A program made the translations under genes and the position numbers. The notes below the pieces were generated by a model, which was given only the letters and a program-made list of their open reading frames with translations, was not told the origin of the DNA and ran no database searches. Positions 3,180 to 60,653 of a stretch of 64,000 nt of DNA are shown piece after piece. This DNA comes from an uncultured delta proteobacterium (GTDB lineage Bacteria > Desulfobacterota > Binatia > Binatales > Binataceae): assembly GCA_963836955.1 (NCBI GenBank), contig CAWILO010000005.1, positions 207,466-271,465 of the forward strand, read 5' to 3'. Position 1 is the first letter of the stretch. Every line of letters begins with the position of its first letter.

Positions 3180-4589
3180 ATGAGGCCCCGGGTTCTCAAG
3201 TCCCAGACTCCTGAGTTTAGAAAATTTCTCGCGGCGATACTTGCGCGCCGCGGCGGCGACGACAGCGCCGGCGTCGATCAAGCGGTCGCGAAGATAATCG
3301 CCGACGTGCGCAAGCACGGCGATCGTGCGCTGATCGATCTGACGGCAAAGTTTGACGGCGTGAAGCTTACCCCAGCGACGATTCGGGTGACGCCCGCCGA
3401 GCGGCATTCAGCGATCAATCGAATTGCGGCTGAAGATCGCCACGCGCTGGAGCTGGCTGCGGAACGAGTCGCGGAGTTCCATCGCCGCACGATGGAGAAA
3501 TCGTTCATCTATCGTGACAAGTCGGGGATGCGCCTCGGCCAGATGGTCCAACCAATGCACCGGGTTGGAATCTACGTGCCCGGTGGACTCGGCGCGTATC
3601 CGTCGTCGGTGTTGATGAATGCGATTCCCGCCAAGGTCGCGGGCGTTGCGGAAATCGTGATGGTCTCGCCACCGTCGGCGGAGGGCGAGCGACTCGCGGT
3701 GCTTGCGGCCGCGGAAATCGCGGCCGTCGACGAATTCTACCGCGTCGGCGGAGCGCAGGCGGTCGCGGCGCTCGCATACGGCACGGAAACTATCAAGCCG
3801 GTCGACAAAATCGTCGGGCCCGGCAACGCCTTCGTACAGGCCGCCAAGCGGATGGTTTACGGCGTTACCGATATCGACAAGATGGCGGGGCCGAGCGAGG
3901 TGCTGGTGATAGCCGACGAGCGCGCGCGTCCCGAATGGATCGCCGCCGACCTGATCGCGCAGGCCGAGCATGGTTCGGGCGACGAGGCGGCCGTGCTGCT
4001 GACAACGTCGGCGAGTATCGCGCAGCGCGTGGCCGAGGAGATCGAAATCGCGCTGAGAAGCCTGCCGCGTGCCCGCCAAGTCGAGGCCGCACTGGTCAAA
4101 AGGGGAGCGATGGTCGTCGTACAGGATTTGAATGAGGCCTTCGACCTGGCCAACGAGATAGCACCGGAGCATCTCGAGCTCGACGTGCGCAATCCGTCGC
4201 GATGGCTGCCGAGGGTCAAAGCGGCGGGCGCGGTTTTTCTCGGGCCGCTGACGCCGGCTCCGCTTGGCGACTATCTTGCGGGCCCGAATCACGTGCTGCC
4301 GACGGGCGGAGCGGCGCGTTTCGCGTCGCCTTTGGGTGCATACGATTTCCTGAAACGAACCAGTATAATCGAGGCCTCGATGGGCGCGATTGCGGCGCTC
4401 GGACCGGCCGTGGCGCATCTGGCGCGGATGGAAGGGTTCGAGGGTCATGCGCGCGCGATGGAACTTCGAGCGGGCGCTGATGGGAAGGCGAAACGGGCAG
4501 GCGGAAATCGAAATGCAAAGCCGGCAGGGGTGACCTCTGCACCCAGTATTAATGCAAAACAAACGAAAGAAACTACGAAACGAAACTAA
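3180..4589 (+). CDS. hisD: histidinol dehydrogenase with an unusual basic C-terminal tail of about 35 aa
   Basis: 469 aa. HisD-like throughout (GIYVPGGLGAYPSSVLMNAIPAKVAGV; QAEHGSGDEAAVLL). Typical HisD is about 430 aa; the Lys/Arg-rich tail overlaps the hisB start. Confidence 0.85.
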   Translation: MRPRVLKSQTPEFRKFLAAILARRGGDDSAGVDQAVAKIIADVRKHGDRALIDLTAKFDGVKLTPATIRVTPAERHSAINRIAAEDRHALELAAERVAEFHRRTMEKSFIYRDKSGMRLGQMVQPMHRVGIYVPGGLGAYPSSVLMNAIPAKVAGVAEIVMVSPPSAEGERLAVLAAAEIAAVDEFYRVGGAQAVAALAYGTETIKPVDKIVGPGNAFVQAAKRMVYGVTDIDKMAGPSEVLVIADERARPEWIAADLIAQAEHGSGDEAAVLLTTSASIAQRVAEEIEIALRSLPRARQVEAALVKRGAMVVVQDLNEAFDLANEIAPEHLELDVRNPSRWLPRVKAAGAVFLGPLTPAPLGDYLAGPNHVLPTGGAARFASPLGAYDFLKRTSIIEASMGAIAALGPAVAHLARMEGFEGHARAMELRAGADGKAKRAGGNRNAKPAGVTSAPSINAKQTKETTKRN

Positions 4590-29953: not shown

Positions 29954-30117
29954 TCAAATCCAATCGCGACTCTCTGAAAAGAAGGCTCCGCCAAGCGCGC
30001 TTATAATGTCCCCGCCAGATACGCGAGGCAAGCACGAACGAAAGGGTTTCGGAGCCGCCGCTGATCCCTCGCACACGCTCCCAATTCTAACAAGGACGAC
30101 GCCCCGCATCTCACTTA

Positions 30118-30176
30118 GTACTGGGTGCAGGGGTCACCCCTGCCCAGGGAAGTGTGAAACCCACGGCGGGTTTCAC
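30118..30176 (+). repeat. palindromic repeat element copy A (core double hairpin)
   Basis: CAGGGGTCACCCCTG hairpin plus GTGAAACCCACGGCGGGTTTCAC hairpin. Near-identical to copies at 32427-32525 (inverted) and 52065-52163. Confidence 0.8.
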
Positions 30177-30243
30177 ATTCAATCCAGTGAGGTCCCTCGA
30201 CTTTGCGCAAAAACGTGTAAGATGGCGCCGGAGAAATTTCGCG

Positions 30244-32403: not shown

Positions 32404-32426
32404 AACGAGATAGGAGCGAATTGAAT

Positions 32427-32525
32427 GTTAAACCCGCGGTGGGTTTCACACTTCCTTCGGCAGGGGTGACCCCTGCACCCAGCGTCAATCGCAAAGTTGC
32501 GCGCAGCGCACTACTTTGCTCTCGG
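32427..32525 (-). repeat. palindromic repeat element copy B (inverted relative to A and C; extended triple-hairpin form)
   Basis: The reverse complement matches copy C over about 100 bp, including the third hairpin GCAAAGTAGTGCGCTGCGCGCAACTTTGC. Confidence 0.8.
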
Positions 32526-32632
32526 TCACATAAATTCGGTTCCGCTCCCCGCTCTGGAAGGGGTTACTTCCACGATCCGGTTCCCCTTCCCGCGCGGCCC
32601 GAAAAAAGGGGTTAGGGGTTAGGTTCTTCTGG

Positions 32633-44620: not shown

Positions 44621-44666
44621 CGTGCGTTGGCGTGGACGGATTAGGCTTGCCTTGCGAGGAGTTACG

Positions 44667-44738: not shown

Positions 44739-44799
44739 GAAGGGTGAGGCAAGGAAAAGAACTACATCAGCGATGCGCGGCGGACAAGACGAGCACCGG

Positions 44800-45666
44800 C
44801 TAATACAGAATCGACGGGATGAACGGGAAGCGCGGCTCGTTGTAGAGGCCGACGCTCATCAGCGTCATCTGCTGCATCAGGCGCAGGCCCTTGCTGTAAC
44901 ACCATCGGAGCAGCTCGCCGTTGCGCGACGGGATCAGCGGGCCCACGCCGAGAAATTCACGCGCTGACGAAATCAGCGCCTTGAGCTCCTCGTTCGATTC
45001 ACCGACAGCGTGACCCGCGTATCCGATCGCGGTCGCGTAGCCGGTGATGCGGCCGAGATGCTCGACGACCGCCGCCGTTCCGCCCTCGATCGCGCCGCGC
45101 AATTCGCCGCTACGATCGTGCCCATGCACAACGGCGCAGAGCCGGTTGCATGCGTCGAGGTCGGCGTCGGTGGCGGGGCGAACGACGTAGCCGGAGAGCC
45201 TCTCGTTGATGGGCGTCCCTACCATCACGGAAAGCGGCTCTCGGATTTCGAAACCAAGCTTCGCGTACAGGCTGAGCGAGCGATTGTGATACGCGGTCTG
45301 CACCAGCCTGACGCCGGGCAATCGATTGGCCGCAACGCGATCGAGCATATGCTGCATCATTGCGCGGCCGGCGCCGCTGTTCTGCACGCCGGGATCGACG
45401 CTGATCGGACCGATCCCTGCGATCGCCGAGCGCTCATCCATGAAGTTGCTGCCGGCTATGCATCCGTTCAACTCCGCGACGATACCGTAATGGCCTGGAT
45501 CGGAAATCATGCCACGGACGACGGCGAGGGCAGCCTCCGGCGCGGGGAACTCGTGCGGGAAATTGTGCTGGTCAGCGATTGTGCAGAACGCGCGGTAACA
45601 AATCTCGCCGCAGACCTCGATATCCTCGCGCGTCGCACGCCGAATCTGTGCTTTCGCTTGAGCCAT
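44800..45666 (-). CDS. GNAT family N-acetyltransferase (two-domain)
   Basis: Start trimmed to MAQAKAQIRR; the upstream 158 codons are Arg-rich overlap artefact. GNAT motif (GAGRAMMQHMLD). Confidence 0.65.
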   Translation of the reverse strand: MAQAKAQIRRATREDIEVCGEICYRAFCTIADQHNFPHEFPAPEAALAVVRGMISDPGHYGIVAELNGCIAGSNFMDERSAIAGIGPISVDPGVQNSGAGRAMMQHMLDRVAANRLPGVRLVQTAYHNRSLSLYAKLGFEIREPLSVMVGTPINERLSGYVVRPATDADLDACNRLCAVVHGHDRSGELRGAIEGGTAAVVEHLGRITGYATAIGYAGHAVGESNEELKALISSAREFLGVGPLIPSRNGELLRWCYSKGLRLMQQMTLMSVGLYNEPRFPFIPSILY

Positions 45667-45668
45667 GT

Positions 45669-46502
45669 TTACGCCGAGGCCTTGGTCTCGCGCTGCATCT
45701 CGGCGTGGCGCCGGTCCGCTTCGGGCCGCGTCTGAGCGATCGTCGCAATCAGCTCGTCGTGCAGCCTTCCGTTGGTCGCGACGATGTTCGCGCCGGCCAA
45801 GTCTAGCTCGGAGGCGTCCATGTTCGTCACGCGACCGCGCGCTTCCTCGACCAGCAACGCGCCGGCGGCGACGTCCCAGGGGCGGAGCCCGAACTCCCAG
45901 AATCCATCGGTGCGTCCGGCCGCGACGTACGCAAGATCGAGCGCAGCCGAGCCGGTGCGGCGTACGCCCTGCACGCGCGTCATGAGTTCTTCCCAGAAGC
46001 ATAGGTAGAAGCGCCGACGCTCGCGCCGGTCGTATGCGAAGCCGGTGCATAGCAGGGCGGCGCCCAGGTTGGGCGTCGAGCTGACGCGAATCGGCTTGCC
46101 GTTCAAACGTGCGCCCTGTCCGCGATGGGCGATGAAGCATTCTTTTTTCAGCGCGTCGTAAACCACGCCGAACTGCAGGCGGCCGCGCCGCTCGTACGCG
46201 ATCGACACGCAGAATTGCGGATAGCCGTGCGCGAAGTTGGTGGTGCCGTCGAGCGGGTCAATGATCCATCGATGGTCGCTCTGATGCACGCTGGCGCCGC
46301 TTTCCTCGGCGAGGATCGCGTGGGTGGGATATGCGCGATGAATTACTTCGATGATCGCCGCTTCCGATTCGCGGTCGGCTTCGGTGACGAGGTCGATCGA
46401 GTTCGACTTGCGATTGATCGTGATTCTGCTGAGTCGCTTGAGATGAATTCTGCCGGCAGCACGTGCGGCGCGGAGCCCAACCTGTTCGATTTCATTGATC
46501 AC
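45669..46502 (-). CDS. suhB: inositol monophosphatase family protein
   Basis: IMPase motifs (WIIDPLDGTTNF; WDVAAG). Confidence 0.8.
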   Translation of the reverse strand: MINEIEQVGLRAARAAGRIHLKRLSRITINRKSNSIDLVTEADRESEAAIIEVIHRAYPTHAILAEESGASVHQSDHRWIIDPLDGTTNFAHGYPQFCVSIAYERRGRLQFGVVYDALKKECFIAHRGQGARLNGKPIRVSSTPNLGAALLCTGFAYDRRERRRFYLCFWEELMTRVQGVRRTGSAALDLAYVAAGRTDGFWEFGLRPWDVAAGALLVEEARGRVTNMDASELDLAGANIVATNGRLHDELIATIAQTRPEADRRHAEMQRETKASA

Positions 46503-46585
46503 GGTTAAGGAAGGTATTACTCGCGGTGAGGAGCGTCCAGCGCGACATGCAGATCAATCGACAATCGATGATCCGAGGAGCACAA

Positions 46586-47764
46586 CTACCAGCGCGGGGT
46601 TTCGGCCAGGCCAATGCCGAGTGCGACCTTGCCGAGCAGTTCGCGGGCGCGAGCGTTGGACAAGGGATGATTCGGGCCTGCGCGAACGTCACGGTAATGG
46701 CGTTCCATCGGGAATTTTTTCAACATCCCGTGCGCGCCGACGACCTCCATGCAGTAGTCCACCGCCCGTATCGCGTTGTTGGTCGCGACATACTTCGGCA
46801 TCACGACTCGCGCCAGGCCATTCTCGCCTTTGAATGAATCGCGTTCGTAAATGTAGTCGCGGGCGACGCCGAGATAGAGCGCGCGCGACTGCGCGATCAG
46901 CGCTTCGGCCTCCGCGATGGCAAACTGGATGCCCGGCAGATATTTGATCGTCCGCGGCTGCGTTAACGGTTTGAGGCGGCCGGCAAATTCCTTGGCGAAC
47001 TTCAGCGCGGCAATCGCGACGCCGGTGTATGTCGCGGCGACAGAAATGCCGAACCATGCGAACAGCGAAATCGCCTGGTCGTTGACCGGGCCGATGGGCC
47101 GCGACTCCGCCATCGCGATCGCCGGCACGCGCACATCCTTGATCACCAGGTCATGGCTGGCCGTCGCGCGCATTCCCATAGCGTCCCACGTCTCGATCAG
47201 CTCGAAGCCGGGGGTGCCGCGAGGCACGACGAAGGTGGCCGACGCGGGAGGATTCGAGTCCTCGATCGTCGCCATCACCATGAACAGATCGATTACGGGC
47301 GAGAGGCTGGTGAAGGTCTTGCGGCCGTTGAGAACGTAGGTCTCCCCGTCGCGGCGCGCGCGAGTCGCGAAGTAACCCCAGTCGCCGCCGGTCTCGGGCT
47401 CGCTGATTCCGCCGCCGAGGATTTGATGGCCGCGGCCGATGACGTCGAAGAACAATTCCTCCTGCGGGCGGCCGGTGGCGCGCTCGACCATGCTGCCGAT
47501 GCCGAACAGATGCATGTTGATGGCGATCGTAGTCGCGGCGCATCCCTGCGCGAGCTGCTCCTGGCAGAGCGCAAAATCCTCGAGGTCGGCGCCGAGCCCG
47601 CCGTGTTTTTCGGGAATGACGAGCGCGGTATATCCAGCCGCTTTCATCTCGTCGACGTTTTCTACTGGGAATGTATTGGCGCGATCGTGTTCTCCGGCGC
47701 GAGTGGCAAAGTCGGCGGCAAGCTCCGCCGCAGGCGGCACAAGTTTATGGCGTCGATCAGACAT
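46586..47764 (-). CDS. acyl-CoA dehydrogenase
   Basis: ACAD N/M/C domain pattern (GGISEPETGGD; YLGVARDY). Start trimmed to MSDRRHKL. Confidence 0.8.
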   Translation of the reverse strand: MSDRRHKLVPPAAELAADFATRAGEHDRANTFPVENVDEMKAAGYTALVIPEKHGGLGADLEDFALCQEQLAQGCAATTIAINMHLFGIGSMVERATGRPQEELFFDVIGRGHQILGGGISEPETGGDWGYFATRARRDGETYVLNGRKTFTSLSPVIDLFMVMATIEDSNPPASATFVVPRGTPGFELIETWDAMGMRATASHDLVIKDVRVPAIAMAESRPIGPVNDQAISLFAWFGISVAATYTGVAIAALKFAKEFAGRLKPLTQPRTIKYLPGIQFAIAEAEALIAQSRALYLGVARDYIYERDSFKGENGLARVVMPKYVATNNAIRAVDYCMEVVGAHGMLKKFPMERHYRDVRAGPNHPLSNARARELLGKVALGIGLAETPRW

Positions 47765-47978
47765 CAGATGAACTCCGCATCGAAAAGTGCAGCGGAAACA
47801 GTGCCATGAAAGCGACGCCCGAAGAAACCTGCTCGCCGAGTGCCGGAGCGTTGGGAGAGCTGACGAGCGGGGCGGTTGCTGCGACTTCATCTCGTGAAGA
47901 CTGGACGCAGAGTTACACCGGGCGGAAACTATCAAGACGAGTGTTTTGGAGAAATAAAACCTAAATTCTGGATCGACT

Positions 47979-48428
47979 ATGAAAACGATCGATGAATTGG
48001 TGCGTGAGCTTGCTGACCGCGAAGCCATCCGCGATCTTCCAATCCGCTACTGTGATTGCATATGCCGAAATGATCTGGAGGGCCTGGTGAGTCTCTTCAC
48101 CGAGGACGGCGCTTTTATTGTAAAAGACCCCGAGAATGAAGTTGTTACGCGTGGCCGCACCGGACTTAGGAAAATGTACAAAAATCTGATCGGCGACGTG
48201 CACCCCAAGCCCTACACCCACACCCACGTCGTCGAATTGCACGGCGCGAACAGCGCGACGGGCAGATGCTACGTCGAGCTGCGCAGCGCGAAGATCAATA
48301 TGGAATGGATCGGCTCAGGCTACTACGAAGACGACTACGTAAAAGTACGCGATGAATGGAAATTCGCCTCTCGCCGCCTGATCGAAGTCGGCATGGCCAC
48401 ATCGTTAAGAACCTTCATGGTGAGTTAG
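47979..48428 (+). CDS. SnoaL-like/NTF2-fold protein
   Basis: 149 aa. NTF2-like pattern (AIRDLPIRYCDCICRNDLEGLVSLFTEDGAF). Confidence 0.55.
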   Translation: MKTIDELVRELADREAIRDLPIRYCDCICRNDLEGLVSLFTEDGAFIVKDPENEVVTRGRTGLRKMYKNLIGDVHPKPYTHTHVVELHGANSATGRCYVELRSAKINMEWIGSGYYEDDYVKVRDEWKFASRRLIEVGMATSLRTFMVS

Positions 48429-48457
48429 ACAACCGATCCAGGGGCTGGACATCCGGA

Positions 48458-49030
48458 TCAATCGTCGACGCGCGATCGGCGCTTCTTCGTCGCGCTTGTC
48501 TCCGTTGCTCTGGTAGTCACTTGGCGCCGAAGCGCATCCGGCATCCCGTCGTGCGATCCTAATCGCTTTCGCGGAACGTCTTCCCACCATTCGATCCACG
48601 GTAGCTCGCCGCGGCGATGCGGATGGAGGGGATAGTAGATCCGATTGTCGCGGCGCGACGCCTCGCCCCCAATCAGGAGTAGGGCTTCACGCTCGCCGTT
48701 GTTGATGAAGCAATGAGTGATGCCAGTCCCAGAAGGAAAGGCGGCAAAGTCACCACGCCGCATCGCGTGAGGTGAGCCGTCTATCCAGACGTCAACCTCG
48801 CCCTCCAGAACGTACACAAACTCCTCTTCCTTCTCCTCGGCGTGCGGCCATGAACTTCGCTCACCAGGCGGCAGCCGCATAAGATTGACGCCAATCTTGA
48901 CCAGGCCCGCAGCTTGTCCGATGTCTCTCGAATAACCGGTGTGCTCGTCGCTATTTGGGTAGTGATGACGTCTCTCGGGAACCGACGCAGACGCAATGAT
49001 GAATGGCGGTCTCTTGGTGCGATTCGACAT
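48458..49030 (-). CDS. cupin domain protein
   Basis: Cupin motifs (HAEEKEEEFVYVLEGE; GDFAAFP.G.GITHCF). Confidence 0.6.
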   Translation of the reverse strand: MSNRTKRPPFIIASASVPERRHHYPNSDEHTGYSRDIGQAAGLVKIGVNLMRLPPGERSSWPHAEEKEEEFVYVLEGEVDVWIDGSPHAMRRGDFAAFPSGTGITHCFINNGEREALLLIGGEASRRDNRIYYPLHPHRRGELPWIEWWEDVPRKRLGSHDGMPDALRRQVTTRATETSATKKRRSRVDD

Positions 49031-49109
49031 GCCTTCCTATAACACGAGCGGGAAACGAGACCGAGGCTTTCTCTTCCGGCATGGCAGTAACCGAAGACCA
49101 GGAGCAGTT

Positions 49110-50516
49110 TTATTTTGCAGGCGGAGAATTCGTAGTCGAATCAGCGGATCGCGGCGCGGATTGCGCCATCATCAGGCGCTGCGCGTACGGCATGATCGTC
49201 GTGAACAGATCGACTTGCGAGTCGAGCGATTTGCCGAGACCGCTCAGCAGGCCCATCATGCGGCCGACCAACAAAACGTCGGCAGGAACTTCGACGACCG
49301 GATTGGCGCGGATCGCTCGCGGGAGATCCTCCGAGAACTGCTCGACCAGGTCCTTGTCCGCGTAAGCCTTCTTCGACTTGATGGTGCTGCCGAGAAACAA
49401 GTCGGCAAACGCGAGCAGCGTATCGGGAGTGCCCGAGCGCGTGCGGAAGCCCAGCTCCTGGAACGCGGCGATGATTCCGTCGCGATTCGAAGTAAGGATC
49501 GAAAACGTCAACCGCACGATGCCGTCACGGAACGAGGGCGGGAAATCCTTGGCCAGGCCGAAATCAAGCAGCACGATTTTGGGACCGGGCTGAATGAGGA
49601 TGTTGCCGGGATGCGGATCGGCGTGGAAAAAACCGTCGCGCAGGACCTGGTCGCAGAAAATCTCGATCAACTTCTGCGCGACGAGATGCTTGTCGATTCC
49701 TGCGTGCTCGAGCGCCTCGACGTCGGTGACCTTGATGCCCTCGACGAGTTCCATCGTGAGCACGCGCCGCGTGGTGAATTCGCGATAGACCTCGGGAACG
49801 ATCACGCTGGAGTCCCCGGCGAAGTTTCGGCGCATCGTCGCCGAATTGTCGGCCTCGTGAATGAAATCCAACTCCATCGGGACGTACTTGAGCGCCTCAC
49901 GCATCAGGATCCGATAGTCGAAGTCGTGCTCGAGCTTCGCGAGCCAGTAGAGCACCGTCGTCATGTTGCGAAGATCGGCGCGAACGATGCCGTCGATGCC
50001 TGGATACTGCACCTTGACCGCGCATCGACGGCCGTCGTGAAGGCGCGCCTGATGCACCTGCGCGAGCGATGCCGACGCAAGCGGCGCCGGATCTAACTCC
50101 GCGTAAACGGACTCGAGCGGACGCCGGAGCTCGCGCTCGACCTGCTCGCGGATCATCGGAAATGGGCGCGGCGGTACGCGATCGTGCAGACCGGAGAGAG
50201 TGGATACCCATTCGTCGGGGAGCACGTCGGCGCGAGTCGCGATAAACTGGCATGCCTTGATCAGCAAGCCTTCCAGACGGATCGCGGTGCTGTTGAGCGC
50301 TTGCGCGGCGCGGAGGTCCTGGCGGCGATATAGCTCGGCCTTGTTGCGGTCGCTGATGAAGCGCGTCCAGAGCTGCGTGCCTTTGTAGCCCGCGTACACG
50401 TACGCCGCGAGCCAGACGACGTTCGAGAAGCGCCAGGCACGAGTGGCGAGGCCGGGCTTGGGCACGTCGGCGGGAAAATCGAAGCTGCGGTCGATAATCG
50501 GGTTAGTCATGCGCAA
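49110..50516 (-). CDS. ubiB: ABC1/UbiB family atypical kinase
   Basis: ABC1 motifs (ASASLAQVHQARL; AVKVQYPG; HADPHPGNIL; LLDFG). Confidence 0.8.
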   Translation of the reverse strand: MRMTNPIIDRSFDFPADVPKPGLATRAWRFSNVVWLAAYVYAGYKGTQLWTRFISDRNKAELYRRQDLRAAQALNSTAIRLEGLLIKACQFIATRADVLPDEWVSTLSGLHDRVPPRPFPMIREQVERELRRPLESVYAELDPAPLASASLAQVHQARLHDGRRCAVKVQYPGIDGIVRADLRNMTTVLYWLAKLEHDFDYRILMREALKYVPMELDFIHEADNSATMRRNFAGDSSVIVPEVYREFTTRRVLTMELVEGIKVTDVEALEHAGIDKHLVAQKLIEIFCDQVLRDGFFHADPHPGNILIQPGPKIVLLDFGLAKDFPPSFRDGIVRLTFSILTSNRDGIIAAFQELGFRTRSGTPDTLLAFADLFLGSTIKSKKAYADKDLVEQFSEDLPRAIRANPVVEVPADVLLVGRMMGLLSGLGKSLDSQVDLFTTIMPYAQRLMMAQSAPRSADSTTNSPPAK

Positions 50517-50583
50517 CAGTCAAAACAAATCCTATTTGATGCGTATGACTCTGAGAACAGACTGTCCATTTCGCCGCATTAGA

Positions 50584-50632
50584 AGTCGCTTGACTGATGA
50601 TAAGCGACTCGAATATTCTCTCGCTCCATGAA
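50584..50632 (+). promoter_or_regulatory. candidate sigma70-type promoter with overlapping 8-bp perfect inverted repeat (operator-like)
   Basis: TTGACT (50590-95), 18-nt spacer, TATTCT. AGTCGCTT(N10)AAGCGACT palindrome spans the -35. Confidence 0.35.
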
Positions 50633-50710
50633 GCCAAGTAGTGTTGTACGTCAAGTCCCCAATTCAATGAGGGTCCTCCTGAATTGAGACGGACATCGAT
50701 ACTTGGCTCT

Positions 50711-50752
50711 AAAAGGCCCCGGGCGCTTGCGAGCCCCGGGGCTTTTTCTTTT
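50711..50752 (+). terminator. intrinsic terminator-like hairpin plus T-run in the leader just upstream of the MFS transporter start
   Basis: AAAAGGCCCCGGG-cgcttgcgag-CCCGGGGCTTTTTCTTTT. A perfect 8-bp GC stem extended by A/T pairs, then a T tract. Confidence 0.6.
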
Positions 50753-50763
50753 GGCGCGACAGA

Positions 50764-52035
50764 TTGGATAGGGAAATTTCCGTGGATATTGTACGACCTC
50801 ATGCTCCGACAATTCGCGATATTATCCGCCGCTACTACACGGTATGGGGACTGTACTCGTTCGCCGGTGGATTTCTTTTCGGCGTCTACCCAATCTTCCT
50901 GCGCTCGCGCGGACTCAGCCAGTTTCAGATAAACAGCGTACTGGCGACGTACTTCCTCGTCCTGTTCCTGACCGACGTGCCTACCGGTGCGTTCGCCGAT
51001 CTGCTGGGCAGGCGCCGCTCGTACGTGCTGGGCGCGTCGCTCCGGGTCTGCGCGTTCCTGCTGTATTTCGTCGCGCATCATTACTACGTGTTCCTCATCG
51101 CGGAGAGTATCGACGGTATCGGCACGACCTTCGGCAATGGCGCGATTGACGCGTGGGGCGTCGATGCGCTCGACCAGGCCGGCTACGACGGACTCAAGGA
51201 CCGGCTGTTCTCGCGCATCTCGCAACTGACGACGATTGGCTTCATGGGGTCGGCGATGATCGGCGCGTACGTCGCCGACGTCAATGTCGCATGGCCGTGG
51301 CTGCTCGGCGCCGGCGGCTACATTATCGCCGGCACGATGGGCGCATTTTTGATGCACGACGAGCCTCCGCGCGCGACGACCGTCAGGATCGCGGCGATCC
51401 CGCGGCAAGTCGCCGCCAACGTGGGCGACGGTATTCGCGCCGGACTGGGCGCGCACACCGTGCTTATGCTGAGCATCGCGAACGCCATCACGTTCGCGGC
51501 GTGGGCGCCGTATTGGATTTCGTGGCCGATCATGTTCAACGAGAGCCTCGGCGTAGGCGTGTGGGTCATCGGTTGGATCTATTGCGGTTTGTCGGCCGCG
51601 CGGCTGATCGGTGCGGAGGTAAGCGCGCGGCTGGTCGTGGACGAATCGCAGCGTGCGGCGCGGGTGAGCATGATGGTTATCGCCGCGAGCGCGATGCTGT
51701 TCCTGGCGGGGCTGTTCGGCGGCCGGCCGGCGGTGTCGCTCGCGATGCTGTTCATCATGAATCTGTTCACGGGCGCGATGATGCCGTTGGTTCAGAGCTG
51801 GTTCAACGAGCAGATCGAATCGGGCAATCGCGCGACCCTGTTGTCATTCAACAGCACCTTCCAGACGATGGGCGGTGCAGCAGGCCTGCTGTTAGCCGGG
51901 CGAATCGCGGACACGGCTGGAATACCGTTCGAGTGGCAGATCGCGGGGCTGATCTCGATGTGCGCCGCGCCGGTGTATTGGGCAACGCGCCGTCGCGAGG
52001 ACGAAGAGGTAGCGCTCGCAGGCACCGCGAAGTGA
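50764..52035 (+). CDS. MFS transporter
   Basis: 423 aa, about 12 predicted TM helices, MFS motif region (GAFADLLGRRRS). Start codon uncertain (TTG 50764 or GTG 50785). Confidence 0.8.
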   Translation: MDREISVDIVRPHAPTIRDIIRRYYTVWGLYSFAGGFLFGVYPIFLRSRGLSQFQINSVLATYFLVLFLTDVPTGAFADLLGRRRSYVLGASLRVCAFLLYFVAHHYYVFLIAESIDGIGTTFGNGAIDAWGVDALDQAGYDGLKDRLFSRISQLTTIGFMGSAMIGAYVADVNVAWPWLLGAGGYIIAGTMGAFLMHDEPPRATTVRIAAIPRQVAANVGDGIRAGLGAHTVLMLSIANAITFAAWAPYWISWPIMFNESLGVGVWVIGWIYCGLSAARLIGAEVSARLVVDESQRAARVSMMVIAASAMLFLAGLFGGRPAVSLAMLFIMNLFTGAMMPLVQSWFNEQIESGNRATLLSFNSTFQTMGGAAGLLLAGRIADTAGIPFEWQIAGLISMCAAPVYWATRRREDEEVALAGTAK

Positions 52036-52064
52036 GCGAGTCACAAAGACGGATCTTCTGTCGA

Positions 52065-52163
52065 CCGAGAGCAAAGTAGTGCGCTGCGCGCAACTTTGCG
52101 ATTGACACTGGCTGCAGGGGTCACCCCTGCCCAGGGAAGTGTGAAACCCACGGTGGGTTTCAC
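52065..52163 (+). repeat. palindromic repeat element copy C (extended triple-hairpin form)
   Basis: Matches copy B (reverse complement) over about 100 bp and copy A over the 3' 58 bp. Confidence 0.8.
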
Positions 52164-52234
52164 TACGTCAAGTTCCTAACGGCCGCGCCCCTACTAGCGG
52201 CGTAGGCGGGCGTCCGTTAAAACTTATAGGTCTT

Positions 52235-53443
52235 ATGGATTTCCCACGAATCAAGCGGCTGCCACCCTATGTCTTCAACGCGATCGGTGAATTGTGCCTG
52301 CAGGCGCGGCGAGCCGGTGAGGACATAATCGACTTCGGGATGGGAAATCCTGACGAAGCGACCCCGCCACACATCGTGGCGAAGCTGGTCGAGGCGGCTA
52401 CCAAGAACGCGAACCATCGCTACTCGGTCTCGCGCGGGGTGTACAAGCTGCGGCTTGCGATCTGCGATTGGTACAAGCGGCGCTACGGCGTCGAACTCGA
52501 TCCCGATTCGGAAGCGATCGTCACGATCGGATCGAAGGAAGGGATCGCGCACCTGGCGCTGGCGATTCTCGACCAGGGTGACGTGGTGCTCGCGCCGACG
52601 CCGACCTATCCGATTCATCAGTATGGATGCATCATTGCGGGCGCGCAGGTGCAGGGTGTGCCGATTCGCCGCGGCGAGGAATTTTTCGACGAGCTGATGT
52701 CGACGGTGAATCGATGCTGGCCGCGGCCGAAGTTCCTCATCATGAACTTCCCGCATAACCCGACTACTGCGACCGTCGATTTGCACTTCATGAATCGGGT
52801 GGTCGAGTTCGCGCGCGAAAACGACATCATGGTCGCGCAGGATTTTGCGTACGCGGACCTGTGCTTCGACGGATACAAGGCGCCGTCGATGATGCAGGTG
52901 GCGGGCGCGAAGGATATCGGCGTCGAGTTCTTCACGCTGTCGAAGAGTTACAACATGCCGGGCTGGCGCGTCGGATTCGCGGTCGGCAATCGCGAGATGA
53001 TCGCGGCGCTGGCGCGACTGAAATCGTACTTCGACTACGGGATGTTCGCGCCGGTGCAGGTCGCGGCGATCGCGGCGCTCAACGGGCCGCAGGAATGCGT
53101 CGCCGAGATCAACGCGACGTACAAGCGCCGGCGCGACGTGCTGGTCGACGGACTCAACCGCGCCGGTTGGCCGGTCGAGAAGCCCAAGGCGACGATGTTC
53201 GTGTGGGCGCCGATTCCGGAGCCGTTTCGCGCGATGGGCTCGCTCGAGTTCTCGAAGTTCCTGCTCGCGGAGGCCAAGGTCGCGGTCTCGCCGGGCATCG
53301 GCTTCGGGCAGGACGGCGACGGCTTCGTGCGCTTCGCGTTAATCGAGAACGAGCATCGCACGCGCCAGGCTATTCGCGGAATTCGTCACGCGCTGCGCGC
53401 CGGTCACGCCGAAATCCCGGTGCGCACGGCCAGCGCCTCCTGA
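52235..53443 (+). CDS. class I/II pyridoxal-phosphate aminotransferase (alanine/aspartate aminotransferase-like)
   Basis: 402 aa. PLP-lysine region ([15 protein letters not shown]); N-terminal KRLPPYVF motif typical of AlaC-like enzymes. Confidence 0.8.
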
Positions 53444-53472
53444 GCGCAATCGCCAAAGCATCGGGGGATGAG

Positions 53473-54780
53473 TTGAAGCCGGTACGGATTGCCCTGCTCG
53501 GATGCGGAACCGTGGGAGGCGGTGTGGTGAAGCTGCTGCTGCGCAATCCTGACAAGTACGAACGCATCCTCGGCGCGCCGCTCGAGCTCGCTGCCGTCGC
53601 CGATCGAAGCCTCAAGCCTGACGACGTGCCTGGTCTGCCGGCGAAACTAATTACGCGCGATTCCGCAGCAGTAGTCACCCGTCCTGATATCGATATCGTC
53701 GTCGAGCTGTTTGGCGGTCATGAACCTGCGCGCGCATTGATCATGAAGGCCCTGGCCGCCGGCAAGGACGTCGTTACCGGCAACAAGGCATTGCTTGCGG
53801 AGCATGGCGGCGAGATCTTTCGCTTGGCTGGCAAGCACGGCCTTGCGGTTGGCTTCGAGGCGAGCGTCGGCGGTGGCGTGCCGATTATCCGCACACTGCG
53901 CGAGGCGCTGGCGGGAGATCGCCAACGCGCCGTTTACGGAATCGTCAACGGCACCTGCAATTCCATTCTCACCACCATGACGGACAACGGCGTCGAGTTC
54001 AGCTCCGCACTGGCCGACGCGCAGGCGAAAGGTTTAGCCGAGGCGAACCCGGCCGTCGATGTCGAGGGACATGACTCTGCGCACAAACTTTGCCTGCTGG
54101 TCACGCTCGCATTCGGTGTGCTGGTAAAACCGGCGCAGATTTACACCGAAGGGATCACGCAAATCACGCAGTCCGATATCGCGTATGCGCGCGAGCTGGG
54201 CTACGCGATCAAGCTGCTCGCGATAGGCAAGGATGACGACGGCGCCATCGAGGCGCGCGTGCATCCCACGATGATCCCGCAACGCCATCTGCTGGCGGGC
54301 GTGGGCGGCGCCTTCAATGCTATCTATATCCACGGCGATGCGCTTGGCGCGACCATGTATTCCGGGCTCGGCGCGGGCGAGATGCCTTCGGCGACGGCGG
54401 TGATGGCCGACATACTCGAAATCGCGCGGCATCGATTGGCCGAAGGTTCGGCGCGAACGCACGCGTTTGGATTTCCGATTCACCTGATGAAGGGCGCCAG
54501 TGTCAAGCCAATGGACGACGTGGTATGCGAGTATTACCTGCGGTTCATGGCGCAGAATAAGCCCGGGGTGCTCGGCGCGATCGCGTCGGTGCTGGGCCGG
54601 CATGGGCTGTCGATCGCGTCGGTTATCCAGAAGGATCGCGGAACGGCGCGGACGGTGCCGGTCATCATGCGGACGCATGACGCGCCCGAGCGCAGCCTGA
54701 AACGCGCGCTGGCGGAGATTCGTAGGAAGAAAATCGTGCAATCGGCCCCCGCATTTATTCGAATCGAGGAGAACCTTTAG
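53473..54780 (+). CDS. hom: homoserine dehydrogenase
   Basis: NAD-binding N-terminus (VRIALLGCGTVGGGV), catalytic domain and C-terminal ACT domain (YYLRFMAQNKPGVLGAIASVLG). Start set at TTG 53473; the 639-aa ORF upstream part is alternate-frame overlap with the aminotransferase. Confidence 0.85.
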   Translation: MKPVRIALLGCGTVGGGVVKLLLRNPDKYERILGAPLELAAVADRSLKPDDVPGLPAKLITRDSAAVVTRPDIDIVVELFGGHEPARALIMKALAAGKDVVTGNKALLAEHGGEIFRLAGKHGLAVGFEASVGGGVPIIRTLREALAGDRQRAVYGIVNGTCNSILTTMTDNGVEFSSALADAQAKGLAEANPAVDVEGHDSAHKLCLLVTLAFGVLVKPAQIYTEGITQITQSDIAYARELGYAIKLLAIGKDDDGAIEARVHPTMIPQRHLLAGVGGAFNAIYIHGDALGATMYSGLGAGEMPSATAVMADILEIARHRLAEGSARTHAFGFPIHLMKGASVKPMDDVVCEYYLRFMAQNKPGVLGAIASVLGRHGLSIASVIQKDRGTARTVPVIMRTHDAPERSLKRALAEIRRKKIVQSAPAFIRIEENL

Positions 54781-54783
54781 TCG

Positions 54784-55884
54784 ATGGCGGCGGACTCGAA
54801 GAGCGGATCGAAAAATCGGCGGCTGTTTCACTGGCCCGGCCTTATCGAGCACTACCGACGCTTCCTGCCGGTGACTGATTCGACGCCGATCGTCACGCTG
54901 AACGAGGGCAACACGCCGCTTATCGAGGCGCCCTCAATCGCAGAGCGGCTCGGCTTGAACATCAAGGTTTACTTTAAGTTCGAGGGCGCCAACCCGACTG
55001 GCTCATTCAAGGACCGGGGCATGACCCTGGCTATTTCGAAGGCGCTGGGCGAGAGCGCTCGCGCCGTGATCTGCGCCTCGACCGGGAACACGGCAGCGTC
55101 GGCGGCAGCGTACGCAGGCCGCGCGGGTCTGAAGGCGTTCGTGCTGATTCCCAAAGGCGCAGTCGCACTGGGCAAGTTGTCGCAGAGCGTGATGCATGGT
55201 GCGCGGGTGCTCGAAGTGATTGGCAACTTCGATATCTGTCTCAAGGTGGTGCGCGACGTCGCCGAGCGCGATCCGGTCAAGATTCGGCTGGTGAACAGCG
55301 TGAATCCCGATCGAATCGCGGGGCAGAAAACGGCGGCGTTCGAGATTTGCGATCAACTGGGCGACGCGCCAACGCATCATTTTCTGCCGGTCGGGAACGC
55401 CGGGAATATCACGGCGTACTGGGCGGGCTACCAGGAATACAAGTCGGTGGGACTGAGCGAGCGGATTCCCAAGATGATGGGCTACCAGGCGTCGGAGTCA
55501 GCTCCAATCGTCGTCGGTCATCCGATCGACGATCCGCACACCGTGGCGACAGCGATTAAAATCGGCAATCCCGCGAGCTGGAAGGGCGCAACCGACGCGC
55601 GCGACGAGTCGGGCGGGATCATCGACATGGTCACCGATTCGGAAATCCTCGCGGCGTATCGGCTAATCGCGGCGGGCGGCGTGTTTGCCGAGCCGGCGTC
55701 TGCCGCTTCTGTCGCGGGCCTGCTCAAGTACGCGGGTGCCGGGCTGCTCAAGCCGGGATCGGTGGTGGTCTGCACGCTCACGGGTCACGGCCTGAAGGAT
55801 CCCGACACAGCGCTGAAAAACTTAAGTAATACGATCGTGGTCGAACCGGACATCGCGAAAGTGTTGAAAATTCTCGACGAGTAA
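54784..55884 (+). CDS. thrC: threonine synthase
   Basis: PLP-lysine motif (NPTGSFKDRGM) and full-length ThrC pattern. Confidence 0.9.
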   Translation: MAADSKSGSKNRRLFHWPGLIEHYRRFLPVTDSTPIVTLNEGNTPLIEAPSIAERLGLNIKVYFKFEGANPTGSFKDRGMTLAISKALGESARAVICASTGNTAASAAAYAGRAGLKAFVLIPKGAVALGKLSQSVMHGARVLEVIGNFDICLKVVRDVAERDPVKIRLVNSVNPDRIAGQKTAAFEICDQLGDAPTHHFLPVGNAGNITAYWAGYQEYKSVGLSERIPKMMGYQASESAPIVVGHPIDDPHTVATAIKIGNPASWKGATDARDESGGIIDMVTDSEILAAYRLIAAGGVFAEPASAASVAGLLKYAGAGLLKPGSVVVCTLTGHGLKDPDTALKNLSNTIVVEPDIAKVLKILDE

Positions 55885-55894
55885 TCCGAGTCAG

Positions 55895-56809
55895 ATGAAG
55901 ATGGAAAGAACCGACGAGCTCGCGATGTTTCGCACGGCGCTCGAGATCGCCGATCTTCATCCGGACGCAGTCAGGTTGCCCGACGACCATCAGGTGATCA
56001 TCGGCGCGCTCCGCTTTCATTACCTCGACTGGGGCGGATCGGGCGCGCCGATCCTTTTCCTGCACGGCGGCGGCATCAACGCGCATACCTGGGATTGCGT
56101 TGCGGTGATGTTGCGCGAACGCTATCGATGCATCGCACTCGATCAACGTGGTCATGGCGACAGCGAATGGTCACCGGTCGTCGACTACCGAATCGCGGCC
56201 CATGTTGGCGATATCGAGGGCTTTGTCACGGCGATGGGATTGGAGCGTCCGATCGTGGTCGGGCAATCGATGGGCGGTCTCAATACGATCGCCTATGCGT
56301 CGCGCCACAGCGACACGATGCGCGCGATGGTGATTGTCGATGTCGCGCCGGAGGTCAGCGCTTCAGGCGCGGAGCGGATTCGCGCATTCTCGTCCACGCC
56401 CGAGCTGGATTCGGCACAGGAATTTCTGGAACGCGCGGTCAAGTTCAATCCGTTGCGCGATCCCGGGGTGTTGCGCCGCAGCCTCTACTACAATCTGCGC
56501 GAGACGCCCGCTGGCAAATGGACGTTCAAGCATGATCAACGACGTCGTTCCGAAGACGCGATGCGATCCTTCACCGAGGATCGCGAGCGGCTCGTGTCAG
56601 AACTCTCCAGGATCAAATGCCCAACCCTGGTAGTCCGCGGGGCGTTGAGCGACGTACTGACCGACGACGCCGCCGAGAAATTCGCGCGCTCGCTGCCTGA
56701 TGGCCGATGGGTGCGGGTCGAGAAGTCGGGTCACAACGTGCAGGGCGACAATCCGCGAGCGCTGCTTGATGCGATGCTCACCTTTTTCAGCCAAGCGGGA
56801 ATTTCCTGA
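55895..56809 (+). CDS. alpha/beta hydrolase
   Basis: HG motif (LFLHGGG) and nucleophile elbow (GQSMGG). Confidence 0.75.
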   Translation: MKMERTDELAMFRTALEIADLHPDAVRLPDDHQVIIGALRFHYLDWGGSGAPILFLHGGGINAHTWDCVAVMLRERYRCIALDQRGHGDSEWSPVVDYRIAAHVGDIEGFVTAMGLERPIVVGQSMGGLNTIAYASRHSDTMRAMVIVDVAPEVSASGAERIRAFSSTPELDSAQEFLERAVKFNPLRDPGVLRRSLYYNLRETPAGKWTFKHDQRRRSEDAMRSFTEDRERLVSELSRIKCPTLVVRGALSDVLTDDAAEKFARSLPDGRWVRVEKSGHNVQGDNPRALLDAMLTFFSQAGIS

Positions 56810-58038
56810 TGAAGTACATCATCATTCATGGCGATGGGATGGCCGATTGGGCGTGCGACGAGCTCGGCGGCAAGACGCCGCTTGCGGCTGCGCACAAGCC
56901 CAACATGGACCTGACGGCGACGCGCGGGACGCTCGGGATGGTCGCGACGATTCCCAAGGGCATGCCGTCGGGCAGCGACGTCGGCACGATGACGATGCTC
57001 GGCTACGACCCGGCGAGGTATCACACTGGACGCGCACCGATTGAAGCGGCGAGCCAGGGAATCGAGATGGGGCCGCGTGACGTGGTGTTTCGGATGAATC
57101 TCGTGTCGCTGAAACCGGGCGAGGGCGGCGCGATGATCATGAACGATTTCACGTCGGGCCATATTACCAGCGAGGAGGCGGCGCAGATCGTCGCGGACCT
57201 GCGCAAGGAATTGGCGGGCGACGGAATCGAGTTTTTCAACGGCGTCAGCTACCGGCATCTGATGATGTGGCGTGGCGGCATCGCGACGACGCATCTCACG
57301 CCTCCGCACGACATCACGGGCAAGCCCGTCGAGGATCACCTGCCCAAGGGTGCAGGCGCGGATCTGCTGCGGGACTTGACGCGGCGTTCGGCGGCGATTT
57401 TGCGCGAGCATCCGGTGAACAAGGCGCGTCGCGACGCCGGCAAGGCTGAGGCAAGTTCGGTGTGGTTCTGGGGGCAGGGCACGCGGCCGTCGGTGCCGAC
57501 GCTCAAGGAGCGCTTCGGTGTCGAGGGCTCGGTGATTTCGGCGGTCGACCTCGTCAACGGGCTCGGGCGGCTCGCCGGCCTGAACCTGATCAAGGTTCCC
57601 GGGGCGACCGGATTTCTCGATACTGATTACGCTGCGAAGGGACGTTACGGCCTCGAATCGCTCAAGACGCGCGACTTCCTGCTGCTTCATATCGAAGCGC
57701 CGGACGAAGCCGGACACATGGGACGCGCCGATCTGAAGAAGGAAGCGATCGAGCGCATCGACCAGTTGATAATCGGGCCGATGCTCGCGGGGCTTGGGAC
57801 GCTTGGTGATTTCGCGATCCTGCTGATGCCCGATCACGCAACTCCAAGCCAACTCAAGACTCATTCGCCGGAACCCGTGCCGTTCGCGCTGATGACCTCG
57901 GCGCAGTTCAAGTCGGGCGGCGGCGTGCCGCACCGCTACACCGAAAGCGACGGCGCCGCGACGGGCATACTCGTCGGCGACGGCTATCACCTGATAGAAT
58001 CGCTATTCGGTAGCCCCTTGAAGACCACATCGAACTGA
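56809..58038 (+). CDS. ApgM-type (archaeal-type cofactor-independent) phosphoglycerate mutase homolog; candidate non-orthologous homoserine kinase
   Basis: 409 aa. Metalloenzyme-superfamily pattern (IIIHGDGMAD; LHIEAPDEAGH; PDHATP). Start overlaps the preceding stop. Located in the hom-thrC cluster. Confidence 0.75.
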   Translation: MKYIIIHGDGMADWACDELGGKTPLAAAHKPNMDLTATRGTLGMVATIPKGMPSGSDVGTMTMLGYDPARYHTGRAPIEAASQGIEMGPRDVVFRMNLVSLKPGEGGAMIMNDFTSGHITSEEAAQIVADLRKELAGDGIEFFNGVSYRHLMMWRGGIATTHLTPPHDITGKPVEDHLPKGAGADLLRDLTRRSAAILREHPVNKARRDAGKAEASSVWFWGQGTRPSVPTLKERFGVEGSVISAVDLVNGLGRLAGLNLIKVPGATGFLDTDYAAKGRYGLESLKTRDFLLLHIEAPDEAGHMGRADLKKEAIERIDQLIIGPMLAGLGTLGDFAILLMPDHATPSQLKTHSPEPVPFALMTSAQFKSGGGVPHRYTESDGAATGILVGDGYHLIESLFGSPLKTTSN

Positions 58039-58053
58039 CCCCGGGAGGCCTGG

Positions 58054-59007
58054 ATGGAGCGGAATCTTGCCCTCGAAGTGGTGCGCGCGACGGAAGCGGC
58101 GGCGCTGGCAGCGGCGCGGTTCATCGGCAAAGGCGACGAGCGGATGGCGGATCGTGCTGCGTGCGACGCGATGCGCAAGACGCTGAACTCGGTCGCGATG
58201 GACGGCAAGATCGTGATCGGCGAGGGCAAAGAGGGCGACGCCGAGTTTCTCTACGAGGGCGAAATCGTCGGCACTGGCGCGGGAACTGAAATCGACGTCG
58301 CACTCGACGCGATCGAGGGTCCCATTATTTGTGCGACCGGCGGTCCCAACGCGCTGTCGTGCGTAGCGCTGGCGGAGCGCGGCCGAATCCTGCGCTGCCC
58401 CGACACCTACATGGACAAGGTCGCGTGCGGGCCGGCAGGACGCGGCGTGATCGATATCGACAGGTCGCCAACCGACAATCTCAAGGCACTGGCCGAAGCC
58501 AAAAAAGTCTACGTCGAAGATCTACGGGTCGCGATTCTCGATCGGCCCCGGCATGAGAAGTTGATCAATGAAGTCCGGCGCGCCGGCGCCGGGATCAAGC
58601 TTATCTCTGCCGGTGACTTGTCCGCCGCGATCGCCACCACCCGGCCCGAGAGCGAAATCGACATGCTGATCGGAATCGGCGGAGCGCATCAGGGCGTGCT
58701 CGCGGGAGCTGCGATTCGTTCCGCGGGCGGCGAGATGCAATGCCGATTCGTGCCGCGCAACTCCGAAGAAGCGGAGGCGTGCCTCGCGATGGGGATCATG
58801 GACTTGAAGCATCGCTACACGCTGGAGGAACTGGCGGGCGAGAACGTGATGTTCGCGGCGACCGGCGTGACCACCGGCGACTATCTGCGCGGCGTGCGAT
58901 TTTTCTCCGGCGGCGCCAATACCAACAGCGTCGTCATGCGCTCGAAGACCCGCACCATCCGTTTCATCGAGGCGATTCATCATTTCGACTTCAAGCCCGA
59001 GTACTAA
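58054..59007 (+). CDS. glpX: fructose-1,6-bisphosphatase class II
   Basis: GlpX motifs (DRAACDAMR; IGEGKEGDAEFLYEGE; GGAHQGVLAGAA). Confidence 0.85.
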   Translation: MERNLALEVVRATEAAALAAARFIGKGDERMADRAACDAMRKTLNSVAMDGKIVIGEGKEGDAEFLYEGEIVGTGAGTEIDVALDAIEGPIICATGGPNALSCVALAERGRILRCPDTYMDKVACGPAGRGVIDIDRSPTDNLKALAEAKKVYVEDLRVAILDRPRHEKLINEVRRAGAGIKLISAGDLSAAIATTRPESEIDMLIGIGGAHQGVLAGAAIRSAGGEMQCRFVPRNSEEAEACLAMGIMDLKHRYTLEELAGENVMFAATGVTTGDYLRGVRFFSGGANTNSVVMRSKTRTIRFIEAIHHFDFKPEY

Positions 59008-59033
59008 AGCCGGTGCAGGAAGGTAGTTGAAAT

Positions 59034-59225: not shown

Positions 59226-59228
59226 TCC

Positions 59229-60014: not shown

Positions 60015-60063
60015 TCACGAAGCAGCGACAACGGAGCGGTGACAGTGCAAGACCTAAATCATT

Positions 60064-60085
60064 GGATGCAGGGTCACCCCTGCCT
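60064..60085 (+). repeat. partial repeat element copy D (first hairpin only)
   Basis: GCAGGGTCACCCCTGCC, one G shorter than in copies A-C. Confidence 0.5.
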
Positions 60086-60596
60086 ACATCATCTGCAAAG
60101 CCTGGCAGGTGTGCGATTCGGGTTTGAACTGACCGCTGAGACACGACAGCTTGGCGGCATCGATTAGCGCCGGCTCGTCCCATTTCGTCGGCCACGGCCC
60201 GGTATTGACGGCGGCGCACGCCTGGTTGTTGCCCATCGAACACCACGCACTCAACTCTCCATGCAGCACCGCCATCTGCTGGCACGCGTCCTGTTTGCCG
60301 GCATTACAGGCAGGGGTTCCCGTCAGAATCGGCGCAGTGGACTCGATCAGGACCTTGGTGTCACTCACCTGCTGCACGATTGTATGACACGCAGCCTCGT
60401 TACCTTCGTTGCATCGCTGGGTTGATTCGGCGCGAACCTTCTCGACAAAATCCTCCGCCGGCCCTGTGCATCCCGAGGCGCCGAGCAGCGCGACCGCGAG
60501 CGCGAACATGCTGACGACGGCGGCCAGGCTCGCGGCGTGCGCTCTGGATTCGGCGGGCATCGGCGCATTGTTTCGCGCGCGATTAGTGTCACGCAA
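60084..60596 (-). CDS. Cys-rich lipoprotein
   Basis: Lipobox LLGASGC; 10 additional Cys in the mature part. Confidence 0.5.
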   Translation of the reverse strand: MRDTNRARNNAPMPAESRAHAASLAAVVSMFALAVALLGASGCTGPAEDFVEKVRAESTQRCNEGNEAACHTIVQQVSDTKVLIESTAPILTGTPACNAGKQDACQQMAVLHGELSAWCSMGNNQACAAVNTGPWPTKWDEPALIDAAKLSCLSGQFKPESHTCQALQMM

Positions 60597-60653
60597 GCCT
60601 CAGCGCCATCCGCGGGGGTTGACAGTCAAAGCGCGGAGGGCGGAATTAGAAGC

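Follow-up and report, generated by a model that had tools for sequence, protein, structure and literature searches.

A lineage-wide, REP/BIME-like family of mosaic palindromic repeats in Binataceae

By likeness of form, the closest known kind of object to the repeats described here is the REP/BIME class of Enterobacteria and Pseudomonas. REPs are short GC-rich imperfect palindromes (21-65 nt), almost all of them extragenic, that occur in hundreds of copies per genome, often just past stop codons. They build mosaics with other conserved motifs, persist at orthologous sites across species, fall into within-family subtypes and are conserved out to the 5' foot of the hairpin. The Binataceae elements share each of these features, the number per genome by extrapolation. 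REP/REPIN populations persist for long periods by vertical inheritance with occasional amplification and conversion, and REP-RAYT systems hold a single-copy RAYT (Y1 HUH) gene flanked by the same REPs. Three differences stand out. Alternating or inverted doublets are typical of BIMEs and REPINs, whereas Binataceae units are mostly single or in direct arrays; accessory hairpins that can replace one another lie, always in a set order, on either side of the Binataceae core; and REPs have a tetranucleotide guide, GT[AG]G, conserved on the 5' side of the hairpin foot (PMC6006769). The Binataceae elements lack this guide, their flank being AC[TC]GGGT, and the GTAG in the stem of one upstream module (U1a, below) is not at a hairpin foot.

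For a design of fixed order and alternative modules, the closest analogues are the BOX elements of Streptococcus pneumoniae and the NIMEs of Neisseria (dRS3 plus variable segments). Like these, the Binataceae elements draw on few module types in fixed order with variable choice or number, are intergenic, have stable secondary structure and encode no transposase within the element. Unlike them, every module is a GC-rich palindrome and one invariant core anchors the alternatives; sequences and host phylum are also unrelated. The PATEs derived from IS200/IS605 offer a third comparison: the subterminal hairpins differ between one end and the other, terminal inverted repeats are lacking, no target duplication is visible and orientation may be biased with respect to strand composition. 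In PATEs the left and right hairpins are alike and one transposase binds both, whereas the Binataceae upstream hairpins are unrelated to the core and downstream ones and the orientation bias is modest. Nor was a tnpA gene found here: a scan for the HUH...YxxNP motif gave no match in 0.94 Mb, taken as 8-kb blocks per genome that are too small to be informative.

These comparisons concern a three-hairpin repeat, copy C, in a 64-kb stretch of Binataceae DNA (the window). Our preferred reading, which we give a probability of roughly 0.7, is that copy C belongs to a family of DNA repeats, mosaic, palindromic and for the most part intergenic, that runs through the whole Binataceae lineage (Binatota) and is analogous to REP/BIME. 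The element spans 52063..52172 (+) and lies in the 199-nt spacer between the stop codon of an MFS transporter gene (TGA 52033-52035) and the ATG of an aminotransferase gene (52235); flanking genes here and below were assigned by Pfam. Its parts, all on the + strand, are an upstream module, U1a (GAGAGC-hairpin-GCGATT, 52067..52103), whose hairpin at 52071-52099 pairs 7+5 bp with one A.A mismatch and one T.G wobble; a core hairpin, H2 (52108..52134, core 52113-52131), with a 7-bp stem, a TCA loop and a CTGG/CCAG extension; and a downstream hairpin, H3 (module D1; 52141..52163), with a 9-10 bp stem and the loop ACGGT at 52150-52154. Hairpin sizes are thus 27 nt for H2 (7-bp stem plus 4-bp extension), 23 nt for H3 and 29 nt for U1a. 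The 121 nt around copy C fold into the three hairpins on both strands, as RNA or DNA, at -54.9 kcal/mol (z = -5.0) for + strand RNA, -52.6 kcal/mol (z = -4.2) for - strand RNA and z = -6.0 for DNA.

The sequence-only reading had matched copy C to the reverse complement of copy B over about 100 bp, and this stands: copy C (52063-52172, +) and copy B (32418-32527, -) match at 93% over 101 nt, the repeat-search arms 32427-32527 and 52063-52163 being 101 nt long and 93% complementary. It had also seen in B and C an extra upstream hairpin that copy A lacks. That hairpin, GCAAAGTAGTGCGCTGCGCGCAACTTTGC, occurs exactly twice in the window, at 52071-52099(+) and 32491-32519(-); copy A, without the GCAAAGTAG hairpin, has a degenerate and different upstream module in its place (ttctaacaaggacgacgccccgcatct, about 30085-30113). 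The H2 core TGCAGGGGTCACCCCTGCC and the third hairpin H3 (GTGAAACCC-loop-GGGTTTCAC) are present in A, B and C. Could independent GC-rich hairpins resemble one another by chance or base composition? The high G+C (about 62%) is all that speaks for this; it is refuted, and its probability negligible, given that dinucleotide-preserving shuffles yield an expectation of 0 matches for each of the three modules, that B and C agree so closely and that hundreds of copies exist elsewhere.

A covariance model built from 113 family members and run unfiltered on the window found exactly five copies. The strongest match was copy A (30118-30182, 91.5 bits, E = 3.9e-27), followed by copy B (32421-32485, 83.4 bits, E = 1.4e-24) and copy C (52105-52169, 78.6 bits, E = 4.4e-23). 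Copy E (4508-4549, -; 28.1 bits, E = 4e-7) had been missed by the earlier count of four, all of which were matched, and the partial fourth copy, D (60059-60098), was confirmed at a weak but significant 18.7 bits (E = 4e-4).

Copy A, between divergent GCS2 and FGGY-kinase genes, is a degenerate U2-H2-D1 element at 30085..30190 (+), made of a U2 module (30085-30113), an H2 core (30126-30144) and H3 (30154-30176), with a short tail at its end. Copy B (32418..32630, -) starts 15 nt past the stop of a GNAT gene at 32403 and comprises H3 (32427-32449), the H2 core (32459-32477) and the U1a hairpin (32491-32519), followed by about 100 nt more upstream, to about 32630, that hold further repeated modules. 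Among the modules chained to it at 32528-32630 (-) are a CCCCTTCCC-loop-GGGAAGGGGAACCGGA hairpin and a CCTAACCCCTAACCCC motif, 2.5 units of a telomere-like 7-mer; further repeated modules also occur at L111:3060-3118. Copy D (60024..60098, +), downstream of a methyltransferase gene, is a decayed U3-H2 element with a U3-like module GCGACAACGGAGCG at 60024-60041, an H2 shortened by one deleted nucleotide (60067-60084) and a remnant of the 3' arm of H3. Copy E (4508..4553, -) consists of H2 only, its core (4523-4541) having one mismatch. Variable copy length had been taken for the mark of a decaying family; this fits D and E, which look decayed or minimal, and fails for A (58 nt) against B and C (100 nt), where the difference comes from alternative upstream modules.

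Copy E also shows that not all copies are strictly intergenic, as had been stated. It lies within the 3' tail (the last 35 codons) of the hisD ORF (3180-4589), which runs about 35 codons beyond the end of the Pfam domain and through the repeat (...AKPAGVTSAPSINAKQTKETTKRN*; window 4470-4589), and it abuts the hisB ATG at 4552. The linker of copy E makes this ATG (cccagtattaATG), the sole in-frame start of hisB, and hisD and hisB therefore overlap by 38 nt. Copy E seems to have remodelled the ends of both genes.

The window holds other features as well. Eight tandem 9-nt units (TGGCCGAAC / TGGCATAAC ...) at 33990-34113 code for the C-terminal end of a small ORF (33679-34110, +), whose product closes with an unusual Trp-x-Asn repeat (...WPNWHNWPNWHNWHNWHNWHNW*). 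A 128-nt direct repeat (6498-6625 / 6760-6887; 76% identity, 262 nt apart) lies in a stretch for which the codon-usage caller made no gene calls. The only Rfam match at gathering score is a tRNA gene at 44667-44738 (-).

We scanned species-representative genomes with the 19-nt H2 core and found the exact core in at least 118 genome blocks, nearly all from about 35 Candidatus Binatus / Binataceae MAGs that carry the NCBI label 'uncultured delta proteobacterium'. At least 174 H2 copies lay in about 0.9 Mb of Binataceae blocks, and a metagenome scan with the U1a pattern added at least about 70 true U1a elements on contigs. The window itself is 84-89% identical to its closest syntenic Binataceae blocks. 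Non-seed copies occur about once per 15 kb in the retrieved blocks and once per 13 kb in the window (5 in 64 kb), a density that, extrapolated, would give about 300 copies per 4.6-Mb chromosome. Sequence subtypes of the H2-H3 dyad are common to most genomes, and one genome-specific burst was seen, five copies of a GCGAA-loop type in a single MAG. The sequence-only reading had hung its proposal on covariation in the stems and on copies elsewhere in the genome; compensatory changes are present in H3, H2, U1 and U2, and the many copies in related genomes and metagenomes make this a dispersed repeat family. Neither the core sequence nor any Binatota repeat turned up in a literature search, and as far as the searchable literature shows the family is apparently undescribed.

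Four IMG/VR contigs labelled viral (L120, L122, L123 and L124) bear typical Binataceae elements, including U2/U1a, H2, D1 and arrays; these contigs may be proviruses or misfiled host fragments. Outside the family's main lineage, an identical 25-nt sequence, ACCGGGTGCAGGGGTCACCCCTGCC, forms REPIN-like inverted doublets in Polymorphobacter (Alphaproteobacteria), where it is extended by CGCCGGAGGC at seven loci (L005, L030, L060, L071, L075, L080 and L121). A GGGC/GCCC stem variant is found in both Polymorphobacter and Binataceae. The shared 25-mer and variant favour a transferable recognising protein over coincidence.

The flanks of at least about 170 copies define a fixed polarity: an upstream hairpin, a T-rich linker ending in AC[TC]GGGT, H2 and a downstream hairpin, with conservation in the aligned flanks reaching from roughly -70 to +80 around H2. 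The core hairpin TGCAGGGGTCACCCCTGCC is near-invariant, its variation being under-sampled because H2 was the search pattern. Around it are arranged at least four alternative upstream modules, among them U1a (GAGAGCAAAGTAGTGCGCTGCGCGCAACTTTGCGATT, in copies B and C), U1b (GAGAGCAAAATGGCGTCCTCGCCATTTTGCGATT), U2 (TTCTAACAGGGACGAAGTCCCGCATC) and U3 (CGCGCGCGACAACGGAGCGCGGCCTTAA), and at least three downstream modules or none: D1, which is H3, often with the tail ATTMAATAAAGTGATTTMCCCTTCCC; D2, GCGGGGC-loop-GCCCCGC; and D3, GCCCGCCGCGCAGGCGATTA. Among the roughly 70 metagenome matches listed, U1a was partnered by D3 in 48, D1 in 20 and D2 in 2. The U1a-H2-D1 arrangement of copy C thus recurs in a minority of elements and is no 'full-length' master copy.

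Of the 174 H2 copies listed, 24 form inverted pairs, spaced 103-242 nt apart and all U-to-U; a further 11 direct tandem pairs were counted among the same copies, and the remainder are single. Clusters in L035, L061, L063, L065 and L105 are direct repeats of U-H2 units. We also observed inserts within elements. In two genomes (L026:1808-1873; L092, about 2697-2763) a 26-nt insert (agcctgtcctgagcgaagccgaagga), which resembles the GTCATCCTGAGCGAAGCGAAGGA-type palindromes lying further upstream of many elements, interrupts H2, so that H2 is itself an insertion target. Several metagenome copies (loci L181, L199 and L224) have a CCGAGACGGTGTCGATG-type insert between H2 and D3.

Comparison of syntenic block pairs (84-90% nucleotide identity) showed 43 shared copy positions and 18 presence/absence differences. 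Two sites are cleanly filled or empty: a 270-nt inverted doublet in L087 sits between convergent stop codons that are adjacent in L016, and within an operon an 82-nt element in L116 takes the place of 10 nt of L106. No target-site duplication was visible in seven filled/empty comparisons, with flanks diverged by 10-16%. At shared positions, orientation was the same in 32 of 33 pairs and downstream class in 29 of 33, whereas the upstream module agreed in only 12 of 33 (36%, against 28% for random pairs). Copy C is an example: the upstream module is U1b in the orthologue of L015, a disrupted U2-like one in that of L084 and absent from that of L083, and all retain H2-H3 directly before one conserved promoter-like block, an arrangement shared by four species in total. 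Such copy dynamics match what is described for REP/REPIN populations.

That block is worth noting for itself. CTACTAGCGGCGTAGGCGGGCGTCCGTTAAAACTTATAG, at 52189-52229 in the window, is conserved directly before the aminotransferase gene in three further Binataceae species, and in the window and L083 its end is 5-6 nt away from the ATG; its sequence has the look of a promoter that would give a leaderless or near-leaderless mRNA.

In size (100-150 nt), position between genes, copy number and presence/absence polymorphism the elements resemble a classical MITE, which derives by deletion from an insertion sequence of the DDE-transposase type and has terminal inverted repeats and target-site duplications. 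They are built otherwise, with U-side and D-side (or tail) ends that are unrelated to each other and an interior that is a chain of independent, interchangeable palindromes, and no duplication is visible at the filled and empty sites with their diverged flanks. We consider this origin very improbable, the classical form being excluded because terminal inverted repeats are absent.

A more serious rival is that the elements are cis-acting structured RNAs of 3'-UTRs or intergenic regions that stabilise mRNA, terminate transcription or insulate genes, maintained by selection on the RNA with spread secondary. Placement bears on this in both directions. Using a simple, approximate codon-usage caller, we found 6 of 167 copies inside called ORFs, mostly at ORF ends. 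The 105 classifiable copies (E standing for the element) comprised 34 in antisense (<E<) and 23 in sense (>E>) between co-directional genes, 29 between convergent genes (>E<) and 19 between divergent ones (<E>), against 427 co-directional, 89 convergent and 95 divergent background spacers. Copies are enriched two-fold in convergent spacers. Where a downstream gene faces the D end, its stop codon is 0-38 nt away in 50 of 57 cases, and the distances from the end of H3 to that stop cluster at 23-31 nt, as long as the tail itself. Between convergent genes, inverted doublets are U-to-U in 12 cases against 0, with D ends toward the flanking genes, so that both genes meet the same end of the element. 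Abutment of the D end on stop codons, this uniform display and the position of copy C and its orthologues directly upstream of the promoter-like block in four species all speak for a cis-acting RNA. The lack of orientation preference speaks against it: the 23 sense and 34 antisense copies in co-directional spacers do not differ significantly, and there is no depletion from divergent spacers (18% of copies, 15.5% of background). So does the free swapping of upstream modules at orthologous loci.

Orientation follows strand composition to some degree. The forward strand of the element lies on the C-rich strand in 64% of copies, rising to 79% at |skew| > 0.04, and 11 of the 12 co-directional cases in which skew and the direction of neighbouring genes conflict follow the skew. 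Removing the coding-strand component leaves a bias of 59-62%, and two of the five copies in the window obey the rule. A replication-strand orientation bias is suggested, confounded with gene orientation.

Stems are 98-99% Watson-Crick with compensatory changes, strong conservation that a cis-acting RNA would also display. In H3, 98.8% of the cells of the 113-sequence alignment are paired, and at three pairs both sides have changed together (AU->GC in 23 cells, UA->CG in 16 and GC->AU/UA/CG in 8). H2 is paired in 99.9%, a figure inflated since H2 was the search pattern, and its innermost pair switches GC->CG/UA. Compensatory variety of a like kind is found in U1 and U2, one U1a pair being C-G, T.G (the state in the window) or T-A among metagenome copies. 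Selection on RNA pairing alone would tolerate G.U; these stems give no enrichment of G.T over A.C mismatches (5 against 3 in H3, 4 against 4 in U1 and 0 against 2 in U2). Searches of Rfam at gathering and permissive thresholds gave no match to the element, the best E values being 7.6 and 8.1. None of the 25 terminator-like sites in a scan of 44001-64000 falls on copy C or D, and no hairpin is followed by a T-run, H3 leading into ATTMAAT and H2 into a G/A-rich linker. Symmetric stems, occurrence in both orientations, the lack of an Rfam match and the lack of T-runs together disfavour a dedicated, strand-specific RNA gene and favour a palindromic repeat at the DNA level. With copies also being gained and lost, the suggestion of a small structured RNA gene in the sequence-only reading was not borne out.

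One feature goes beyond the stems: a single covarying G:C<->C:G pair, X:Y, joins the foot of H2 to the loop of H3. X, the second base beyond the H2 stem, is C at 52132 in copy C; Y, at the centre of the five-base H3 loop, is G at 52152. In the 113-sequence alignment the pair is CG in 50 sequences, GC in 46 and otherwise in 6; in a stricter set of 85 copies the split is 42/39 with 4 discordant, a mutual information of 0.82 bit. The pair next to X:Y is C:G in 104 of the 113 sequences. The covariation was replicated in 42 further distinct copies from metagenome or viral-labelled contigs (26 G:C, 11 C:G, 3 discordant), and orthologues often differ in state, copy C being C:G and its counterparts in L083, L084 and L015 G:C.

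Three simpler accounts of X:Y were set aside. Plain subfamily linkage was rejected, since polymorphic sites located between the two positions have no more than 0.02-0.15 bit in common with X or Y. The idea of a larger palindrome or of an inversion was rejected as well, X having no partner downstream of H3 (mutual information <=0.08 bit at every position). Flipping of the H3 loop by hairpin inversion accounts for the change in Y and not for the coupled change in X.

The X:Y covariation makes plain that folding of a single strand is important. It would be explained if two base pairs joined the loop to the linker and stacked on H2, in the topology of an H-type pseudoknot. In IS200/IS605 elements a guide pairs with the cleavage site (PMC6006769). 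The X:Y pair, between a hairpin foot and a distant nucleotide, recalls this arrangement, and a guide/target-type pairing like that at IS200/IS605 ends would, by analogy, also account for the covariation. Since a G:C<->C:G exchange is strand-symmetric, X:Y does not tell RNA from single-stranded DNA, nor one strand from the other. The covariation, recurring in new copies, thus suits a pseudoknot-like RNA fold too, and the many copies at conserved orthologous positions together with the X:Y pair would also fit a selected RNA function. Weighing all of this, we regard a primarily cis-acting RNA as unlikely.

A bolder joint reading, which we entertain as doubtful, would make the H2-H3 dyad a three-dimensional ligand, with a 2-bp contact (C,X)/(Y,G), stacking into a rod and selection holding X:Y as G:C or C:G across Binataceae. 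On the same joint footing, this would be a new hairpin-plus-pseudoknot mode of recognition by an HUH-type mobilising enzyme or an RNA-binding factor, and the ACCGGGTGCAGGGGTCACCCCTGCC doublets in the alphaproteobacterium would reflect a repeat/enzyme system transferred between phyla.

For the DNA-repeat reading that we prefer, the mechanism would run as follows. Units would fold in single-stranded DNA and be copied or moved by a hairpin-recognising HUH/Y1 enzyme, RAYT- or IS200/IS605-like; by analogy with those systems, the family probably spread by such a single-strand transposase. Ectopic gene conversion would additionally reshuffle modules. Units that become fixed at gene 3' ends would be co-transcribed, and there they may work like REPs, their hairpins protecting mRNA or impeding read-through. 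An ORF between two H2 arrays in L063 was considered as a Y1 transposase or REPtron and rejected, its sequence resembling, by eye, a secreted protein.

The Binatota, abundant in soil and peat, are uncultured, and the searchable literature reports no repeat families from them. At the extrapolated 300 or so copies per genome, the family would therefore fill a large share of their scarce intergenic DNA. Its members can confound the calling of gene starts and stops, as at hisD/hisB in the window, and they can readily serve as markers in typing strains and in binning contigs of Binataceae. With copies in the hundreds spread over dozens of species, they form a natural data set on the persistence, module swapping and foldability of REP-like elements, and the X:Y covariation offers a concrete, testable way to ask what recognises the hairpins. 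The family is a new, lineage-wide, REP/BIME-like mosaic, a fairly ordinary kind of object whose one surprise is the X:Y pair.
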